Assembly (NCBI GenBank): GCA_964010765.1
Contig: CAXGMD010000097.1
Span: forward strand, 1 to 10,676
DNA length: 10,676 bases
Direction: 5' to 3'
From: an uncultured bacterium
Lineage (GTDB): Bacteria; SAR324; NAC60-12
Shown: piece by piece, positions 2,355 through 10,676 of the stretch
Position numbering within the stretch: position 1 is the first letter of the stretch
How the letters are laid out: each line of letters starts with the position of its first letter
The notes under the pieces: model-generated
Told to the model about the DNA's origin: nothing
Database searches by the model: none
The model's input: the letters and a program-made list of their open reading frames with translations, nothing else
Made by a program: the position numbers and the translations under genes

Positions 2355-3393
2355 TTCAGAAGCGCTGATTCGTATTGAGCACCTCTACAAGATCTTTGGT
2401 GCGCGACCTCAGACCAAGTTGTCTTTGGTAAAGCAGGGAATCGACAAGCAAGAGTTGTTGGAAGAGCACCAGCATGTGCTGGGTCTTACTGACATCAACT
2501 TGGAAATTCCCAAGGGTAGTCTGCAGGTAGTAATGGGCCTCTCTGGATCCGGTAAATCTACGTTGATTCGTCACATCAACCGCCTGATTGAACCAACTGC
2601 TGGAGAGATCTTGGTTGGTTCAGACGACGTGTTGAAGATGGACAAGGTGCAGTTACGAGAGTTCCGACGGCATCGAACAGCGATGGTTTTTCAGCGCTTT
2701 GCACTGCTGCCGCACCGTACAGTCCTGGAGAATGTATCCTACGGGTTAGACATCCAAGGAATCGCCAAGGGAGAAGCGAACCAGCGAGCAGAACGCTGGA
2801 TTGAGCGAGTGGGACTGGCCGGATACGAGAATCACTTTCCCGCTAAACTCTCTGGAGGTATGCAACAGCGAGTTGGGTTAGCTCGGGCGCTGGCCACAGA
2901 CGCAGACATCCTGTTGATGGATGAAGCTTTCAGTGCATTGGATCCACTCATCCGCACCGACATGCAGAACATCCTGCTGGACCTGCAGGAAGAACTGCAC
3001 AAGACAATTGTCTTCATCACCCACGATCTGGACGAGGCGTTGAAGCTCGGTGACCAGATTGCGATTCTACGGGATGGAGGAATGGTTCAGCAGGGAACAG
3101 CCCAACAGATCGTGATGAAACCGGCTGACGACTACATCATGGACTTCGTTCGTGACATCAACCGGGCGCGGGTCTTACGAGTTCGTGGTGTGATGGAAAG
3201 AGCAGGCTTGCCCGAAAACGCAGATGGAGCAATTCCAGAAAATATCTCACTGGAGGACGCTCTTCCCCGTTTAGCTTCAGCAGGTCACGAAGCGGTCCCT
3301 GTGCAGAACAAACAGGGTCAGATCGTGGGAAGCATCACGGTAGAGTCTGTCATTCAAGCGATGATTCGACCAGATCATGACAACCGCAACTGA
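2347..3393 (+). CDS. proV: Glycine betaine/proline ABC transporter ATP-binding subunit
   Basis: GTG start overlapping proW by 8 bp, with a G-rich RBS upstream. Walker A GLSGSGKS, signature LSGGMQQR, Walker B/D-loop LLMDEAFSALDP, H-loop FITHD, and a short CBS-like C-terminal tail. Confidence 0.95.
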   Translation: MSDSEALIRIEHLYKIFGARPQTKLSLVKQGIDKQELLEEHQHVLGLTDINLEIPKGSLQVVMGLSGSGKSTLIRHINRLIEPTAGEILVGSDDVLKMDKVQLREFRRHRTAMVFQRFALLPHRTVLENVSYGLDIQGIAKGEANQRAERWIERVGLAGYENHFPAKLSGGMQQRVGLARALATDADILLMDEAFSALDPLIRTDMQNILLDLQEELHKTIVFITHDLDEALKLGDQIAILRDGGMVQQGTAQQIVMKPADDYIMDFVRDINRARVLRVRGVMERAGLPENADGAIPENISLEDALPRLASAGHEAVPVQNKQGQIVGSITVESVIQAMIRPDHDNRN

Positions 3394-6300
3394 TCACCCG
3401 GGTAAGCTGTCTTGCTGATTCTCTCTTCAATCAACTGCTTCCGCTGGAGAATTTCCTGCTTCAGCGGTTGCTGTTCCTCACACTCTCTCAGCACCCAATC
3501 ACAAGTCCGGAAGACTAATCCACACTTGGGCTTCTTAGGCAGTCGCTCCAGGTCTAGGTAGCGTTCCAGCATGTAAGCCCTCGGGGTGCTGCCATTCATC
3601 GTGATGTGCCAGTATTCACTTCTTCTCGCCAGCTCTGCAGTCGATTCTCCTGTTGCCAAGCGAAAATACTTCACCGCCAGATCAAGCAACTCAACTAAAT
3701 TAGCCCGAGCTGATTCCATGGAAGTGATCATGGGGACTGCTTGCTCGCGTGGCATTTCAGCAGGCGTCACCGTTGTCTCTGGTTGCTCTGATTCAGGGCA
3801 GGCCGTAACCGTATAGACCCATTCCTGTTGCGCACCAAACTCCATCACACGGACAGTGAGTTGACAGGGCCACTTGGTGCCGTCTTTTTGCAGAATGATC
3901 TGTCGACTGATAGATGGTTTTTCGTTTTTCCAGCCATCCTGCTGAAAGAAACTAGAGATGGAGCGTTGGAGAGTTTCACTCTGGGGAAATCCAGTACGCT
4001 CTCCAAAACTCTTGTTGGCGTAGAGAATTTGATCCGCACTGCTGGTGACTACTAAGGGAGTTTCCACTGTATCAAAGAGGGTGGCCATTCGGTGATGCTC
4101 CTGGCGAAGCTCAATTCGTTGTTTTTCAGATTCTTCGAGTGATTTCTGCAACCGGATTTGTTGGATCAGACCTAGTTGACTCTGTACTCGGGAGCGCAAC
4201 TCCATCGCCACTAGCGGCTTGATCAGGTAGTCATTGGCTCCAAGAGTCAACGACTTGTGCGTGGTGCGCTCCTGTTCATTGGCAGTGACAACCAGAATAG
4301 GGAGTTCTTGTGGGCTATATTCGCTGCGGACTTGGCGAATCACGGAATATCCATCCAGATCGGGCATCATCAGGTCGAGGATTAGTAAGTCTGGATCGTC
4401 TTCCGTCAAGCGCTCCAGCATACTGTTCCCATCTGCGTAGCTGGTGATCTCGAGATCCAGGAATTCCAAAAAATTATGGATGATCTCCACATTCAGTGGT
4501 TCATCGTCCACTACCACGATCCTGGCGCGGCCCTCGAATGAAACCTCCTTCTCAGACTCAGCGACTTCTTGGAAGTCATCGTCTTCCAATCTCTCCTGAG
4601 AGGCTTGGGGAGAGGCTTCCTGGCTTGGAAAACCTTCAGCCAAAGGTAGCGTGAATTGAACGCGAGTTCCTGTTCCCAATTGACTGGAGATCTGCAACTC
4701 TCCTTGGTGGAGTTCAACGATATGCCGAGACAGGCTCAACCCGAGTCCCATTCCAGAAATTGTCGCGACATTGCTACCTCGGCCATAGTCTTTGAAGATG
4801 TTGTTCAATTCGTCTTCAGGAACCCCTACTCCGGTATCTTGCACCTCGACTTGTAGGCTTGATCGAAGCAGCCGAGCTTCCAGCAGAATTTCGCCGCTTT
4901 GAGTGTACTTGACGGCATTATTGATCAGGTTGAAAAGCACCTGCTGAATCCGGTTTTCATCCACAGCCACTTTTGGCAGATTTTCCGGAATCTTTGTCTT
5001 CAGGCTCAGTTTTTTGCGTTCAATACTGGGGGCAACCAAGGGCAGCATGGTCTGAAAGATCTGCACAAAGTTTGCGGGATTGCGCTCCAGCTTCAGCTTG
5101 CCATCGCGCATGTTGGTAAAATCAGTGATGTCCCCGATCAGCTGATTCATTCTTCTGCCGCTGTTAACAGCAATCTCCAGCTTGCGTACGAACGCTTCAG
5201 CCAAGCCATCTTTTCGCTCCAGGATGCTTTCACAAAGCCCAATCATACCTGCTAGGGGAGTGCGCAGTTCGTGAGAGGTTCTGGCTAGGAAGAGATCCTT
5301 GTTGCGATTCTGAATCTCCAATTGATTGGTCAATCTGCGTAGTCGCACCTCTCGATCCTTGTAGATGATGATAGAGAGAAGCAACGGAATGACAGCGCGA
5401 TAGTCGGCATTCCAGACGTCAAAAATTGGAGGAAGTGTTCCTTCCACAGTCAGGTTTGTCAGGAGGGGAAGGGAGTAGATCATTATGAAAACGATCGCAA
5501 ATTCATGGAGATGTGGTCTTTTCTTCCAGGAAATGACCAGCACCATCACGCAGTAGAAATAAACAAGAATGAATCCGAGCACATTGAGTTGAAAGGGGTT
5601 GCTGAAGAGCTTGAGTAGTGTTTTCTGTTCAAATGCGAGAAATCCGCTCGTGAGGAAGAGGACAACTAAGGCTGTAAGAGAGTGCTGGAGATAATTCTGA
5701 AACTTGACGTGGTTGAAGCCAGTTTCTCCGACAATGATGCGGAGATAGGCAATGGAATTAATAGCAAGTTGGGCTGCAAACAATTTGAGATAAACTTCCG
5801 ATGTGAATGAGAAATCCAGCAAGAGATAGAGCTTTTTCTCCAGTAGCACCCCGAATAGTCCATTGACAATGATAACCAACAACCAAAGCTGGTTCTGGCT
5901 CCAACCAACCAGAGCTGTCAAGAGGAAGCTCAGCAGGAACAGTCCGATCACCATCCCAGTCACCAACACCCGCAACAACTGCTGGTCTTCATAAGCCTGG
6001 AGGCTCAGCAGCTCGAATCCTCGAATGACTCCACCCCATTGCTGTTTGAGCAGAATCAACACACTCCTTCCAGAGGATTCTAACTGGAAAGAATAATTCT
6101 GAGAAAAGGACATTTTAGATGGAGTCAGCACTCTAAGTTCACCGTCTTCCTTGATTAGAAATGCTTGAAACTCAATCAGGTTCAGCGTTTGGAATTCAAG
6201 GACTCTCGGGATTTTGGTGGAGGGCAAGTCGAGATGGAACCAAACGTTGCCGTGTTTCTGAGCCATCTTGTTGAAATCTTTTCTTGTCCAATCATCGAAT

Positions 6301-6476
6301 GAGTCGAGTTGTTGGAGGATTTCTTGAGGCTGAGAAAGTTGCTCTCGCTCCAGATAGTATTTGGCTGAGAGGGTTGTTGAGTCTTGTTCCCTCAAGTTCT
6401 GGCAGGAACCCAGAAAGAGTCCGCTCAGCACTAGGAACAATGGAATGTGCAGCAGTCTAAAAAGCCCAAGTGACAT
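3375..6476 (-). CDS. Membrane-bound hybrid sensor histidine kinase: 7TMR-DISM-like input, HisKA, HATPase_c, REC, PAS and a ChiS-like C-terminal DNA-binding domain
   Basis: N-terminal hydrophobic signal ending LGSC. Extracellular segment with VWFHLDLP, then about 7 TM helices. H-box FLARTSHELRTPL (His402, codon 5271-5273), N-box NLINNAVKYT, G1 DTGVG, G2 GMGLGL. REC VVDD...LILDLMMP (Asp701)...VVTA...IKP. PAS-like LFDTVETPLVVT...ILYANKSF. C-terminal ATGESTAELARRSEYW...LERYLDLERLPKKPK. Kinase and REC calls are firm; the DISM and DNA-binding calls are by-eye homology. Confidence 0.92.
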   Translation of the reverse strand: MSLGLFRLLHIPLFLVLSGLFLGSCQNLREQDSTTLSAKYYLEREQLSQPQEILQQLDSFDDWTRKDFNKMAQKHGNVWFHLDLPSTKIPRVLEFQTLNLIEFQAFLIKEDGELRVLTPSKMSFSQNYSFQLESSGRSVLILLKQQWGGVIRGFELLSLQAYEDQQLLRVLVTGMVIGLFLLSFLLTALVGWSQNQLWLLVIIVNGLFGVLLEKKLYLLLDFSFTSEVYLKLFAAQLAINSIAYLRIIVGETGFNHVKFQNYLQHSLTALVVLFLTSGFLAFEQKTLLKLFSNPFQLNVLGFILVYFYCVMVLVISWKKRPHLHEFAIVFIMIYSLPLLTNLTVEGTLPPIFDVWNADYRAVIPLLLSIIIYKDREVRLRRLTNQLEIQNRNKDLFLARTSHELRTPLAGMIGLCESILERKDGLAEAFVRKLEIAVNSGRRMNQLIGDITDFTNMRDGKLKLERNPANFVQIFQTMLPLVAPSIERKKLSLKTKIPENLPKVAVDENRIQQVLFNLINNAVKYTQSGEILLEARLLRSSLQVEVQDTGVGVPEDELNNIFKDYGRGSNVATISGMGLGLSLSRHIVELHQGELQISSQLGTGTRVQFTLPLAEGFPSQEASPQASQERLEDDDFQEVAESEKEVSFEGRARIVVVDDEPLNVEIIHNFLEFLDLEITSYADGNSMLERLTEDDPDLLILDLMMPDLDGYSVIRQVRSEYSPQELPILVVTANEQERTTHKSLTLGANDYLIKPLVAMELRSRVQSQLGLIQQIRLQKSLEESEKQRIELRQEHHRMATLFDTVETPLVVTSSADQILYANKSFGERTGFPQSETLQRSISSFFQQDGWKNEKPSISRQIILQKDGTKWPCQLTVRVMEFGAQQEWVYTVTACPESEQPETTVTPAEMPREQAVPMITSMESARANLVELLDLAVKYFRLATGESTAELARRSEYWHITMNGSTPRAYMLERYLDLERLPKKPKCGLVFRTCDWVLRECEEQQPLKQEILQRKQLIEERISKTAYPGDQLRLS

Positions 6477-6550
6477 GGTTTCTTTTGAAAAATGTCTGAC
6501 GATTTTGTGAAACAGCCCCCTAGTTTCTATCAGATGAGTTGTTGTTGCAC

Positions 6551-6590
6551 AACGTTCTCCAAAATTCTCCGTTATTCTCCGTTATTCTCC
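6551..6590. repeat. Four tandem 10-bp units ending in TTCTCC (AACG/AAAA/GTTA/GTTA-TTCTCC)
   Basis: TTCTCC at 6555, 6565, 6575 and 6585, an exact 10-bp period. The last two units are identical (GTTATTCTCC). It lies 75-115 bp upstream of the kinase start. Confidence 0.9.
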
Positions 6591-6667
6591 TTGAGAAAAG
6601 TCAGAGTGTTACTAGATTCTGCAATCAGTCAATTATTTTAGATCTGAAAGAGTGATTGTGCTCTATG

Positions 6668-6700
6668 GATCTTAAGATCTCGAAACGATTGTTTAACAAT
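6668..6700. promoter_or_regulatory. Two adjacent palindromes in the divergent promoter region
   Basis: GATCTTAAGATC (6668-6679, perfect 12-mer) and ATTGTT-T-AACAAT (6688-6700), about midway between the divergent starts at 6476 and 6886. Confidence 0.35.
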
Positions 6701-6885
6701 GTTTGGAGTTGTTGTGTCTCAGACAGACGAGCGTAGATTGGACTTGGAAGACGAGGCAGAGTGGTCTGATCGGAATCCTTTTTGGTATTTGGCGGTAGGT
6801 GGCAGTGTACTGGTCGCTGCCTTTCTCCTATGGTTACTGCTCTAGGGTTAGCAGCACCAGAACTTTTTCAACCATTGACAGAAAA

Positions 6886-7701
6886 ATGAAACCAACGAAA
6901 AAATTTCTTGTCGTGGATGACAATGAATGGATTCTCGAAACAATGTACGAGTTGCTGATTCCAACTGAGCAGGCTGCTGCACCTAAGTTTGAGGAGATGG
7001 CCAGCAGTCTGTTCAACAACCCAGCAGTAACTCAGCTTGCAGCCCAGCGGGAGGATAAGCGGGAAATCACTGGTGCAACAACCGGCGAGGATGCTCTGGA
7101 GCAAGCTGAGCGTGCATTAGAATTGGGGGAGCCGTATTTGATCGCTTTTGTTGATTTGAACCTTGAGCGAAACCTGAATGGGGTCGATGTAGCCATTCGT
7201 TTACGACAACTGGATCCCAAGATTCAGATTGTCATCATTACGGCGTACTTTGATCGTAGGGATGAAGATCAGCTTCACCGTGAGCTGGGTACCGGAAACT
7301 TTCACTTCCTCCGCAAGCCCTTCAAGATGGCAGCAATGAAAAAATTAGTAGATGAACTCTGCCATCATCCGTCTGTTGATGAACATCAGACGCCTCAATC
7401 AATAGAGCTCTCCCACCTAGATGCTGTCGTTGAACCGCTAAACCTCTCTGAGGAGCTCAATAGAGTCCTCAGTCAGTACGGTATTCGGTCCGTTCGTTTT
7501 GTCGTGTCTGATCAACGAATCGTGCAGCAAACACTCACCTATCCAAATCATCAACACAGCCTGGTGACAGATATCCCCTGGGTTGAGGATTGTTCTTTCG
7601 GGGATCTAGAGGATGCCCGCAAAGCCTGTCACCAGGTGATTCTGCAGAAGAGTCTGGAGCGCTTGAATAAAAGTCCTGGTACTCAATGGGCGTCCTCTTG
7701 A
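6886..7701 (+). CDS. Response regulator: receiver domain with an internal insertion plus an uncharacterised C-terminal region
   Basis: FLVVDDN, AFVD (phosphoacceptor), IITAY and LRKPF are all conserved. There are ~30 extra residues after helix 1 and a ~110-aa C-terminal region with no recognisable output domain. Start moved from GTG 6799 to ATG 6886 because the receiver begins right after MKPTKK. Confidence 0.85.
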   Translation: MKPTKKFLVVDDNEWILETMYELLIPTEQAAAPKFEEMASSLFNNPAVTQLAAQREDKREITGATTGEDALEQAERALELGEPYLIAFVDLNLERNLNGVDVAIRLRQLDPKIQIVIITAYFDRRDEDQLHRELGTGNFHFLRKPFKMAAMKKLVDELCHHPSVDEHQTPQSIELSHLDAVVEPLNLSEELNRVLSQYGIRSVRFVVSDQRIVQQTLTYPNHQHSLVTDIPWVEDCSFGDLEDARKACHQVILQKSLERLNKSPGTQWASS

Positions 7702-7726
7702 TGATTCAACGCTATGAAAGCTCTTC

Positions 7727-7976
7727 ATGAGAAAGCTAGTTCTTGCTTCCCTCTGTTTTCCACTTTTCACAAGTTTAGCCCTCGTCAAGAAGCTTATCTT
7801 TGCTAAAGGGCCTGATGGTGGTCTGTTTCGAGTATTTGCATCGGGCATCTCAGCGTGCCTGAACAAGAATCAAGATGAACACACCTTTACCACGCAGCAC
7901 ACGGGTGGAGTTGGGTAAGACAGGCATCGTGACGCCACTGCACAAGGGCGCCGCCTCTTTTTGGAAGAATCAGTAA
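7727..7976 (+). pseudogene. Internally deleted, frameshifted TAXI-family TRAP solute-binding protein remnant
   Basis: The frame from ATG 7727 gives a signal-like peptide then LIFAKGPDGGLFRVFASGISACLNK...TTQHTG, matching the TAXI N-terminal GPxGGxF pattern. The +1 frame 7905-7976 gives VELGKTGIVTPLHKGAASFWKNQ*, matching the TAXI C-terminal PLHPGAxx[FY][WY]KE motif. The middle of a ~320-aa protein is absent. Confidence 0.75.
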
Positions 7977-7977
7977 A

Positions 7978-8008
7978 GATTTGAAACACGGGATCACTGT
8001 TTCAAATC
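7978..8008. terminator. Perfect 11-bp inverted repeat (hairpin) right after the TAXI remnant
   Basis: GATTTGAAACA (7978-7988), a 9-nt loop, then TGTTTCAAATC (7998-8008). It starts 1 nt after the remnant's TAA. No U-tract, so it may be a stabilising hairpin or operator rather than an intrinsic terminator. Confidence 0.45.
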
Positions 8009-8039
8009 ATCTGTAACAGCAACAAATCTCTATCAAAGA

Positions 8040-8453
8040 ATGGATATTCACGAAGTGCGCAGGTGGACCAGTGAACTGAACGTCCTGGTTGTCGAAGATG
8101 ATGAAGTTTTACGGGAATCTTTCCAGCAGTTGCTCAGCTACCTCTTTGCAGAAGTTGATACCGCCGTTGACGGTCAGGACGCTTTCGATCAATGGGTGAA
8201 AAAGCAGCATGACATAGTCGTCACCGATCTAAACATGCCGCGGCTGAGTGGCTTTCGGCTGATCGAAAAGATTCACCAGCAAGCTCCACAGCAGGCGATG
8301 GTTGTCATCAGCGCCTATGAAGATGAAATTTTTCAGCAAGCTCTGACAACTCAACAGGTAAATTACCTGATCAAACCGGTCAGCCTGGAGGAATTGCTAA
8401 ACGTGCTGATTCCCGTTTGTCAAAGTCTTCCTTTAGAGCATCAAGGTTACTGA
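8040..8453 (+). CDS. Single-domain response regulator (CheY-like receiver)
   Basis: VLVVEDD, DIVVTDLNMPRLSG (phosphoacceptor Asp), VISAY and YLIKPV. No output domain. Confidence 0.93.
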   Translation: MDIHEVRRWTSELNVLVVEDDEVLRESFQQLLSYLFAEVDTAVDGQDAFDQWVKKQHDIVVTDLNMPRLSGFRLIEKIHQQAPQQAMVVISAYEDEIFQQALTTQQVNYLIKPVSLEELLNVLIPVCQSLPLEHQGY

Positions 8454-9256: not shown

Positions 9257-9701
9257 CATTCTTCAGATTTTCTGTTTCTCGCTCGGAGAAGTTCGCCTTC
9301 AAGCCAGATGTGGGCCCAGGTCTACACATTCAATTTTCCCCATTTTTTCAGTTCTCACAATTCCCTCATCTACCACGAAGGTGGTCCCCCCTCTCCCAGT
9401 TGAGCGAGGTTTTTTAGTAAATTGATTTCATTTGCCAATTCAATTTTTTGGTGAGCAGCAGTCCGCAGTTTTTTTACCTTTTCCTTTGGGGAGAAACTGG
9501 CTGAAGGCTGGATGAGGGGTGTGTGTCAACTCTGAAGGTTTCTCCAAATTTTGTCTGATAACCAACCACTCTGTCTCTTCAATTCTCTTCCAACTTCTAC
9601 CAGCAACGTTTCGAAATTGAGCGAAACTCCAATCCAAGCAACCGGTTTCTTAAAAATTTATCTGCCAAAATGGAATCACTAATTTCAAAAAAGCAGAAAA
9701 A

Positions 9702-9962
9702 ATGGAAACCATACCCCGAAATCTAAAGACGCTCTCCTCCAGCTTTTTCTTGTTTGGACCCAGAGGAACCGGCAAATCCACCTGGCTTCGACAGCACTTT
9801 CCAGAGGCTCTTTGGATCGATTTGCTGGACCCCCGCGAACAGCGGATCTTCCGGGCGCATCTAGAGCATTTGCTCGAGCGACTGATGGGAGATCCAGAGA
9901 GAACGGTGGTGGTGATTGATGAGATTCAGAAAGCTCCAACTTTTTTGGATGTCATCCATTGA
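9702..9962 (+). pseudogene. Truncated AAA+ ATPase (AAA_14/DUF4143-type), N-terminal fragment only
   Basis: SFFLFGPRGTGKST (Walker A), WIDLLD and VVIDEIQKAPTFLDVIH (Walker B), then TGA at 86 aa. Family members are about 380-400 aa, and I see no expected LTGSS continuation downstream. Confidence 0.85.
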
Positions 9963-10391
9963 GAAGGCTGGACCCTTACAAATCTCCTCCCAAAATACTT
10001 GTGTCGTTCTCTCTTCCATTTGGCAAAATCTTTGTAGACGATCCGTCCGTCCGCTTTCATTTTTCCAGTGATTCGATAGTAGTCTTCTGCAAAAATCCCA
10101 ACTCTTTTTCAGGGCTAACGAAAGCCTAAAATCTTAAATAACAAGATTTTTCTAATTTTTGCTCCGAAATTCTCCACCTTATGTTTTCTGGCCTGGCGGA
10201 TATTCTCCGAAATGTTCCTACCGACAAGTAAATTTATTCACTATTTTCTCTTGTAAATCATTTTCTTGTAGTAGACGAAAAGATTAGTGAAAGCATAGCC
10301 TTCCTGTGATCTTTGATTAGATGGGGAAATTGACATCCCCTTCCCTTTGCGTTTGAAACATTGATTAAGAATTAAAAAGGTTAGGAGAGAT

Positions 10392-10676
10392 ATGGATCGT
10401 GCGCTGATTTTTGTGGACTCAAAGCATTACCGAGGCAACTGTCGTCGGATCCAAGACCGTTTTGAGGTGAAAGGATCGGTCAAACTGAATTACAACGACC
10501 AAGATCAAATGGTCAAATTATCTAATTTGAGCAGGGGTGGATGTCGACTCATCTCAGAGAACCATTGTAGTCCACAAGCTAGTGTCCATCTCACATTTCT
10601 AGTACCGTCCAAGATCCATCGGCAGCAATTGCAGGTTCAGTCCCCAATTCTTGCTCGAGTAGTACGCTCGCATCAC
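10392..10676 (+). CDS. PilZ-domain (c-di-GMP-binding) protein, 3' end beyond the window
   Basis: Not in the ORF track. RBS AGGAG at 10383-10387, ATG 10392, open for 95 codons to the edge: MDRALIFVDSKHYRGNCRRIQDRFEVKGSVKLNYNDQDQMVKLSNLSRGGCRL...ARVVRSHH. It contains RxxxR (RIQDR), [DN]xSxxG (NLSRGG) and the typical ARVVR strand. Confidence 0.88.
   Translation, partial: MDRALIFVDSKHYRGNCRRIQDRFEVKGSVKLNYNDQDQMVKLSNLSRGGCRLISENHCSPQASVHLTFLVPSKIHRQQLQVQSPILARVVRSHH

Follow-up and report, generated by a model that had tools for sequence, protein, structure and literature searches.

A SAR324 hybrid sensor kinase with a ChiS-family DNA-binding tail and candidate operators near its gene

Can a sensor kinase that remains embedded in the membrane act as its own transcription factor? 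The question is raised by a gene on the reverse strand of a 10,676-nucleotide stretch of DNA from an uncultured SAR324 bacterium (the window below), which the open reading frame list and its translation give as a hybrid sensor kinase of 1033 aa (3375..6476, stop codon included in the coordinates). The original prediction, made from the letters of the sequence, was that this kinase ends in a cryptic DNA-binding domain like that of Vibrio cholerae ChiS, a kinase reported to bind DNA directly (bioRxiv 10.1101/2020.01.10.902320; PMC12704726). ChiS is the sole studied member of this DNA-binding family, and the non-Vibrio architectures that have been catalogued are without a known target. The analysis below leads us to favor, with a probability of about 0.65, the explanation that the kinase as a whole resembles ChiS in uniting sensor and transcription factor in a single protein embedded in the membrane.

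The last ~100 residues of the kinase are a ChiS-family DNA-binding domain, a helix-sheet-helix variant of the HTH that was delineated by sequence, profile, structural model and Foldseek at aa 921-1017 of the 1033 (3426..3716, reverse strand). The translation at aa 923-1020 reads as originally quoted (the coordinates then given, 3420-3710, correspond to residues 923-1019), and the pattern that had been given for the domain, W-E-x2-TG...LAExSxxW...TLDRYL...LPKxPRW, agrees with the consensus of 40 aligned relatives. Pfam has zero matches to aa 893-1033, as is also the case for aa 1-390. However compared, the tail leads to the V. cholerae ChiS DNA-binding domain: aa 893-1033 match 7kpo_A with E=1.2e-12 over 97 ungapped residues, a match far beyond chance given that the runner-up has E=1.3, and the family profile of 40 relatives aligns with chain residues 3-106 over 104 positions (E=3.8e-39). 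The AF2 model of the tail (pLDDT 91.4) shows the order helix, helix, beta hairpin, helix, helix, with elements H32-39, E45-47, E50-52 and H54-59; its top Foldseek match is again 7kpo (E=3.1e-7, TM 0.89, rmsd 1.7 A, 28% identity), 1 of 441 Foldseek matches reaching E<=1e-3. Thus, both the profile search and the AlphaFold plus Foldseek comparison that had been suggested as checks came out in favor of the predicted identity. The C-terminal placement is likewise typical, with the domain lying within the last 150 residues in 150/150 representative matches.

The tail retains the hallmark residues W956, Y973, P980 and P983, along with R972 and K984 at the positions of ChiS K1078 and R1090 (R/K in 150/150 and 142/150 representatives, respectively). 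Three of the five basic residues needed for binding by ChiS are absent: R1068 is replaced by G962, R1074 by Y968 (R/K in 117/148 representatives, Y in 6/148) and R1092 by G986 (R/K in 98/149, G in 7/149). The last two replacements, at arginines critical for DNA binding by ChiS, bear out the expectation of a diverged recognition region; R1074 and R1092 have been described as “somewhat conserved”, being required in ChiS but not family-defining (PMC8092284). Inside the SAR324 clade the segment W956-H-x-T-x-N-G-x3-R-A-Y-M-x-E-R-Y973 is invariant. Sequence and alignments further reveal a codon TGT (3522..3524, reverse strand) for Cys985, at a position that is Trp in relatives (W1091 of ChiS). Trp is found here in 123/149 family representatives, with Cys outside the seven most frequent residues, and also in each of the 7 further members of the 90% cluster in which the site is covered, leaving Cys to this assembly alone. 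DNA contigs from runs X10 and X2 also carry the Cys985 allele, and the related strain in X15 has Trp.

Upstream of the tail, the kinase consists of a probable, diverged 7TMR-DISM sensor, a HisKA/HATPase core, a REC domain and a weak PAS domain. The core (4638..5300, reverse strand; Pfam) comprises HisKA at aa 393-458, with H402 and T406, and HATPase_c at aa 506-613, and is followed by the receiver (4185..4520, reverse strand; aa 653-764; Pfam 1.3e-26) with D657/D658, D701, T731 and K753. All these residues, together with the N box and G boxes (N520, D547/G549/G551, G575/G577/G579), are unchanged in 18/18 full-length relatives; the protein therefore has the HisKA phospho-His, the HATPase_c N and G boxes and the REC phospho-Asp of a hybrid histidine kinase. 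The PAS-like domain (3801..4091, reverse strand; aa 796-892) was recognized by a weak Pfam PAS match (E=4.5e-4), which at aa 796-876 scores 20.7 bits, under the gathering cut-off of 22.6; precomputed PAS matches are carried by homologs.

A protein so built could also be an ordinary hybrid kinase engaged in a phosphorelay to the neighboring REC proteins, its tail having lost DNA binding in this clade and being a protein-interaction or structural module. This would accord with the two REC genes adjoining the kinase, the loss of the R1074 and R1092 equivalents and the W985C change in the present allele. Nevertheless, an HPt domain is absent from both the kinase and the window, the REC genes are broken in 4/6 congeners yet the tail persists, its hairpin and helix 3 being invariant, and it retains its fold and the two family-wide basic residues. 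We consider this alternative improbable.

The input region was recognized solely by profile-profile and fold comparison, being too diverged for the Pfam 7TMR-DISM models, none of which matched it at E<=1. It begins with a putative signal peptide, read from the sequence, with a lipobox-like LGSC (C25; 6402..6476, reverse strand), of which S24 and C25 are conserved at >=90% and the following Q26 is unchanged among the relatives. The model, Foldseek and hhalign place next a periplasmic beta-sandwich ectodomain of the 7TMR-DISMED2-like type (6003..6374, reverse strand; aa 35-158), and the model shows seven helices for the putative, diverged 7TMR-DISM_7TM segment (5310..6002, reverse strand; aa 159-389). 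In hhalign, the input matched bona fide 7TMR-DISM proteins with a probability of 94.4% (E 9e-8) over 328 columns across the ectodomain and transmembrane part, although transmembrane composition can inflate such profile scores. The ectodomain fold resembles the periplasmic domain of Pseudomonas aeruginosa RetS (Foldseek TM 0.70, E 2.3e-3 for 3jyb_A; TM 0.56 for 2XBZ), a 7TMR-DISM hybrid kinase in which an ectodomain is likewise followed by seven transmembrane helices and a hybrid kinase. Unlike the protein under study, RetS is not known to carry a DNA-binding tail, and its target is another kinase.

The kinase is ordered like ChiS (VC0622; Klancher et al. 2020, 2021; DNA-binding domain in PDB 7KPO), as had been anticipated: HK and REC are followed by a PAS-like region, weak by Pfam, and a C-terminal helix-sheet-helix domain. 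Both proteins are membrane-anchored, and ChiS H469, T473 and D772 correspond to H402, T406 and D701. In contrast, the ChiS input is a CBP-binding periplasmic domain with HAMP, in place of which the SAR324 protein has the lipobox signal peptide, beta-sandwich and seven transmembrane helices, in line with the predicted exchange of sensors. The hosts differ as well (SAR324, not Vibrio), and, again as predicted, the window has no chitin genes. Having neither the CBP domain with HAMP nor the chitin-gene linkage, the kinase is not a ChiS ortholog. Its architecture is not new, contrary to what had been implied, but constitutes an already named class in Klancher 2021 (PMC8092284) with the same domain order: P0041 and P0056 of this class align from the transmembrane region to the DNA-binding domain (residues 192-999 at 30% identity and 255-1006 at 28%, respectively). 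SAR324 entries are found in that data set solely among the “Unassigned hits” (PMC8092284). The same genome codes for a second kinase with a ChiS-type domain, P0299 (G000:C45:1843-4611), which also combines 7TMR-DISM, HK, REC and a ChiS-type tail; however, P0299 gives canonical matches to 7TMR-DISMED2 and 7TM of Pfam, lacks PAS, has a tail nearer to the family consensus and is 33% identical to our kinase in the kinase core only. The supposition that standard annotation would call such a protein just a histidine kinase was partly right: cluster members are called “response regulator” or “ATP-binding protein” by NCBI, and some of these already read “sensor histidine kinase ChiS” in JGI/IMG.

If the tail binds DNA, where might its sites be? 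The original prediction had proposed two target fragments, of which 6477-6885 contains motif sites and 1-325, upstream of opuA, has none. The sites follow a 16-bp direct-repeat motif of the type TTCTCC-N4-TTCTCC (degenerate form TkyTCC-rAAAT-kyTCC). Sequence and congener alignment identified a candidate operator in which a TTCTCC-N4 unit is repeated in tandem, four times and every 10 bp (6555..6590, forward strand; three units in the congeners), abutting the -35 of a promoter-like site oriented divergently to the kinase gene (TTGAGA, 16 nt spacer, TAGATT; 6591..6618, forward strand), whose -10 is TAnnnT in 6/6 aligned loci. Two further copies, 43 bp apart, lie at 10160-10175 and 10203-10218 (10160..10218, forward strand), upstream of a PilZ-domain gene (10392..10676, forward strand; domain search) that is cut by the contig end; a scan found no sigma-70-like promoter beside them. 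In the 3.86-Mb genome the triple repeat has a single match (reversed control 0), and the degenerate 16-mer, a pattern derived from these very sites, matches exactly at 3 places, none of them outside this contig (0 for the control); allowing one mismatch adds 21 genome matches versus 2 for the control.

Kinase orthologs are present in 7/8 congeners searched, and all three motif sites are kept at the same positions in congeners even as the flanking intergenic DNA has diverged. In the block upstream of PilZ, 47/68 columns are invariant in 4 loci versus 73/268 outside it. Of the extra exact sites in congeners, L028, L029, L031 and L032 (4/6) were discarded as lying inside long ORFs, L030 is located at a contig end, and the site in G036:C25 is a triple repeat in intergenic DNA, with a Gly-rich lipoprotein gene downstream; the motif is absent at paralogous lipoprotein genes elsewhere. 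The congener G038 has neither a kinase ortholog nor a motif site (0 sites); we rejected it as a clean co-loss of the two, for it is too diverged and has another arrangement after opuA. A search for covariation of motif and DNA-binding domain in more distant homologs yielded nothing usable, the sole match, in L018, being inside a 1025-aa ORF.

The neighbors of the kinase gene code for an OpuA-type ABC transporter, two REC proteins, a pentapeptide-repeat protein and the PilZ protein, and the kinase is the sole gene of the window with a recognizable DNA-binding domain. Downstream of the promoter-like site is a conserved small ORF (6714..6845, forward strand; GGAG 5 nt before a GTG start) for a 43-aa protein with an acidic N-terminus and one transmembrane helix, intact in 6/6 loci of the genus with an in-frame 3-nt indel. 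Domain searches identified next a 271-aa REC protein with a C-terminal ~115 aa outside REC (6886..7701, forward strand), frameshifted in 4/6 loci, and a 137-aa single-domain REC protein (8040..8453, forward strand), interrupted in 4/6. The motif, kinase and 43-aa ORF are all intact in the 4 loci with both REC genes broken. The OpuA-type transporter was considered as a target or co-sensor by analogy with CBP and ChiS and rejected for lack of evidence: its adjacency is limited to genus-level synteny, the neighbors of the g11 homologs differ, and 1-325 is without the motif. Metatranscriptome contigs cover parts of the stretch (25/30 bins in X14 and 23/30 in X15); since they show neither starts nor strand and DNA carry-over is possible, expression is not claimed. 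One X14 piece, 6599-6757, begins upstream of the predicted -10 and speaks neither for nor against the promoter.

Together, these observations allow a 16-bp motif with candidate DNA sites and target genes to be proposed for the kinase, which is what this analysis adds. That the repeats at 6555-6590 and the two 16-mers at 10160-10218 are its operators is a tentative assignment, to which we give somewhat less than even odds. For a kinase dimer in parallel arrangement, an inverted repeat would be the more natural target. Sites that recur directly every 10 bp are classic for OmpR/PhoB-type regulators and match winged-helix response regulator geometry. The tail may bind DNA while the TTCTCC repeats serve another regulator, which could be a response regulator of the OmpR/PhoB type with its gene elsewhere, or else the 271-aa REC protein by means of its C-terminal ~115 aa, which has no Pfam family and no Atlas match; the kinase would then have its targets elsewhere in the genome. 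Such a division would also suit two more distant genus g11 homologs, which have the same recognition segment and no intergenic motif in the fetched 12.2 and 5.9 kb, and the ChIP-seq result, as reported in PMC11856585, that ChiS occupies several distant loci. On the other hand, all motif sites are kept in the 4/6 loci where the 271-aa REC gene is frameshifted, exact copies of the motif occur nowhere in the genome but on this contig, and the window has no further DNA-binding domain. On balance we regard a separate regulator of the repeats as rather unlikely.

Returning to the favored reading of a one-protein sensor and transcription factor, the periplasmic beta-sandwich and seven-helix bundle would sense an external ligand and govern the core, a bifunctional kinase/phosphatase (H402, T406); the core would in turn set the phosphorylation state of the protein's own receiver at D701. 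The phosphatase activity of ChiS is reported to require T473, and its phosphomimetic D772E to reduce DNA binding (bioRxiv 10.1101/2020.01.10.902320; PMC12704726); binding of ChiS to its site has also been demonstrated in E. coli (bioRxiv 10.1101/2020.01.10.902320). By analogy with ChiS, we infer that the tail binds DNA under the control of phosphorylation, such that the unphosphorylated form would let it engage DNA with the protein still in the membrane. Through the candidate operators, the kinase could then control the divergent operon of the small membrane protein and REC proteins as well as the PilZ gene, a step that we would place a little short of an even chance. More speculatively, and on our estimate rather doubtful, the tail might read TkyTCC-rAAAT-kyTCC only around its own gene, the kinase thereby running a small private regulon of the 43-aa tail-anchored protein, the two REC proteins, the PilZ c-di-GMP receptor and, in relatives, the surface lipoprotein. 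In this reading the 43-aa membrane protein may exert feedback on the sensor, much as small proteins do that regulate kinases.

The genome-unique, short candidate operator beside the gene offers a cheap in-vitro test of the DNA binding and specificity of a diverged family member, and would make it possible to study the way in which a dimer tethered to the membrane recognizes direct repeats in helical phase. If the private-regulon reading is true, it would provide the first operator and regulon for a ChiS-family domain outside Vibrio and would indicate that the family is able to read tandem, helically phased half-sites. Beyond this locus, the ChiS-type domain, covered by neither Pfam nor NCBIfam, occurs in 29/45 genomes of the SAR324 family to which this genome belongs, a single genome having as many as 16 copies, and is thus a major unannotated output module in that family of an abundant, uncultured ocean lineage.

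Within the window, which is one entire 10,676-bp contig of a 3.86-Mb, 92% complete assembly, a minus-strand ORF (3375–6476) translates to a 1033-aa protein, here the kinase. Going by the names of close homologs, the contig belongs to the SAR324 cluster. Pfam profiles recovered HisKA (aa 393–458), HATPase_c (aa 506–613) and REC (aa 653–764) domains, along with a PAS domain (aa 796–876) that scored below threshold at 20.7 bits vs. a cut-off of 22.6. Residues 1–390 and 893–1033 had no Pfam match, and NCBIfam returned generic hybrid-kinase similarities only, each under its cut-off. We searched the tail (residues 893–1033) against all PDB sequences, and the sole significant match was the Vibrio cholerae ChiS DNA-binding domain (7kpo_A, E=1.2e-12, 97 residues ungapped), the runner-up scoring E=1.3. 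Among 1.84 billion cluster representatives scanned, 590 were relatives of the tail at E≤1e-3, and a profile made from 40 relatives matched 7kpo_A at E=3.8e-39. The AlphaFold2 model derived from the alignment of relatives (mean pLDDT 91.4) comprises two helices, two short strands and two further helices; in a Foldseek search of the PDB, 7kpo was its top match (E=3.1e-7, TM 0.89, rmsd 1.7 Å over 105 columns, 28% identity) and the only one of 441 with E≤1e-3. The original prediction had read the end of the kinase as a ChiS-like DNA-binding domain and had suggested checking it by profile and by AlphaFold with Foldseek. Both checks bear it out, since each singles out 7kpo, and the identity of the tail as a member of the ChiS family is secure.

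The signaling core is likewise intact. All 18 full-length clade proteins share H402, T406, D657/D658, D701, T731, K753 and the N and G boxes, T406 occupying the position of ChiS T473. No HPt domain was found in the kinase or elsewhere in the window. According to the reports on ChiS, it binds DNA directly while in the membrane and is active when unphosphorylated; the D772E substitution reduces DNA binding and T473 is required for phosphatase activity (bioRxiv 10.1101/2020.01.10.902320; PMC12704726). By homology and from these intact residues, we infer that the kinase would act like ChiS, as a transcription factor that stays in the membrane and is governed by the receiver it carries.

As for the input, Pfam models of 7TMR-DISM had no match in the close relatives of the kinase. 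The kinase aligns from its membrane region through its tail with two proteins, P0041 (residues 192–999) and P0056 (residues 255–1006), which carry PF07696, PF07695, HK, REC, PAS and a ChiS-type tail. In hhalign, the clade alignment, cut to residues 1–385, matched the N-terminal regions of nine bona fide 7TMR-DISM kinases with a probability of 94.4% (E=9e-8); the 328 aligned columns extend over the ectodomain as well as the membrane part. In the AlphaFold2 model of residues 1–390 (pLDDT 79.8), an N-terminal helix precedes a beta-sandwich (~35–158) and seven long helices, and Foldseek matches of the model include the beta-sandwich-plus-7TM proteins WLS and TMEM87A. The ectodomain matched the periplasmic domain of RetS (3jyb_A, TM 0.70, E=2.3e-3; 2xbz_A, TM 0.56), which we take to be a 7TMR-DISM protein. 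The input of the kinase is thus likely a diverged 7TMR-DISM sensor. This polytopic protein opens with a lipoprotein-type signal, LGSC (6402–6476, aa 1–25), whose C25 is shared by ≥90% of the 18 relatives.

In ChiS, five basic residues are reported whose substitution by Q abolished DNA binding: R1068, R1074, K1078, R1090 and R1092 (PMC8092284). In the ungapped alignment with 7kpo_A, the numbering of ChiS runs 106 ahead of that of the kinase, which places G962, Y968, R972, K984 and G986, respectively, at these positions. In an alignment of 150 representatives to the family profile, the five positions hold R/K in 14/148, 117/148, 150/150, 142/150 and 98/149; therefore, the kinase retains both basic residues conserved family-wide (R972 and K984). 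It also retains the family hallmarks W956, Y973, P980 and P983, and departs at two positions important in ChiS, where, as the original prediction of a diverged recognition region anticipated, Y968 and G986 replace R1074 and R1092. The hairpin/helix-3 residues W956, H957, T959, N961, G962, R966, A967, Y968, M969, E971, R972 and Y973 are invariant in the SAR324 clade (18 full-length proteins with identity down to 34%). This invariance, together with the departures from ChiS, fits a conserved yet different DNA specificity.

Between the equivalents of R1090 and R1092, the codon at 3522–3524 is TGT, encoding Cys985. This position is Trp in 17 of the 18 clade members, in all seven genomic homologs, in 7/7 other members of the 90% cluster covering the site and in 123/149 family representatives, where Cys is not among the seven commonest residues. 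The allele is not an assembly slip, because contigs from two DNA runs, X10 and X2 (the latter possibly the source sample), carry the same base; a related strain in run X15 has a Trp codon. Cys985 is thus a private substitution of this assembly in the DNA-binding domain.

Five congener loci share a gene order in which opuAC, permease and ATPase genes point rightward, the kinase leftward, and the small ORF, two REC genes, pentapeptide and PilZ genes rightward. In the window, the convergent ABC ATPase and kinase genes overlap at their 3′ ends by 19 bp (3375–3393). In four of these loci (L014–L017, from G033, G031, G036 and G032) the flanking proteins are 90–98% identical to those of the window, whereas the kinase is just 59–65% identical, its core and REC being best kept and its ectodomain, PAS and linkers least. 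The kinase and REC genes (3375–8453) thus form a fast-evolving island against the opuA and pentapeptide flanks. Both REC genes (6886–7701 and 8040–8453) are frameshifted or stopped in L014–L017, L016 and L017 being interrupted by an in-frame stop at one shared codon, and neither gene is disrupted in the window or in the congener genome G037; this decay looks like an ongoing loss of partner receivers. The kinase and the small ORF (43–45 aa) are intact in all six loci. The latter (6714–6845, plus strand, 43 aa, GTG start at 6714 with GGAG 5 nt upstream) encodes a conserved, unannotated protein with an acidic N-terminal head and one C-terminal TM helix; this small membrane protein may regulate the kinase. 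The pentapeptide–PilZ spacer (9257–10391) is ~1.1 kb in the window vs. ~0.68 kb in congeners and holds an 86-aa AAA_14 ATPase fragment (9702–9962), probably a gene remnant.

Directly upstream of the small ORF lies a plus-strand promoter-like site (TTGAGA-16 nt-TAGATT) whose -10 position reads TAnnnT in 6/6 aligned loci. Abutting it at 6555–6590 are four TTCTCC units spaced exactly 10 bp apart, of which congeners have three. The triple-unit pattern, allowing ≤1 mismatch, has no other match in the 3.86-Mb genome (reversed control 0). Upstream of the PilZ gene (10392–10676) are two more such 16-mers, TGCTCCGAAATTCTCC and TTCTCCGAAATGTTCC (10160–10175 and 10203–10218), offset by 43 bp. The block that contains them has 47/68 invariant columns across four loci vs. 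73/268 outside it. A degenerate 16-mer matched the genome exactly three times, always on this contig (control 0); as it was derived from these sites, recovering them is circular and the absence of others is what informs. With one mismatch, it has 21 further genomic matches vs. 2 for the control. In congeners, the exact 16-mer occurs at the locus sites and six others. Four of the six fall within long ORFs and a fifth sits at the edge of a contig; the sixth (G036:C25:1318–1343) is a triple repeat of TGTTCCGAAA in intergenic DNA, with a Gly-rich lipoprotein gene ~290 bp downstream. This last repeat, of the same type as at the kinase locus, adjoins a tyrosine-recombinase fragment. In the closest relative's locus, a homolog of the Gly-rich lipoprotein directly follows the motif.

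We infer that the tail would read this candidate operator because the exact motif is unique in the genome, adjoins the kinase gene and is retained in loci with decayed REC genes, and because no other DNA-binding domain was found in the window. Against this link stand the direct-repeat geometry of the array, which is typical of OmpR-type regulators, the lack in the kinase of equivalents of ChiS R1074 and R1092, and the absence of an intergenic copy of the motif from 12.2 and 5.9 kb around the two more distant homologs in genus g11.

ChiS-type domains have been catalogued in 3,829 proteins, invariably at the C-terminus, and Fig. 5A of that survey lists 7TMR-DISM among the partner domains, while its Data Set S1 has three SAR324 accessions, all under 'Unassigned hits' (PMC8092284). 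Our literature search did not find a study of any non-Vibrio family member. Orthologs of the kinase (E≤1e-100) are present in 9/45 family genomes, namely this one, 7/8 other congeners and 1/3 of genus g11, and the ChiS-type domain in 29/45, with ≤16 matches per genome. Some SAR324 relatives (G026 and G028) hold up to 16 such matches, in open frames of ~120 to >2000 aa. The same assembly encodes a second kinase of this kind (C45:1843–4611), ordered 7TMR-DISM-HK-REC-ChiS-DBD, which differs from the window kinase in having canonical Pfam 7TMR-DISMED2 and 7TM matches and no PAS. In SAR324 relatives, ChiS-family domains thus form an extensive group of output domains that lack annotation. The protein type that the original prediction recognized was called correctly and, going by the survey (PMC8092284), is already catalogued; the window kinase belongs to a known type that is common in its lineage. 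Both its sensor and its recognition surface are diverged, and the motif sites provide a concrete hypothesis for a candidate operator.
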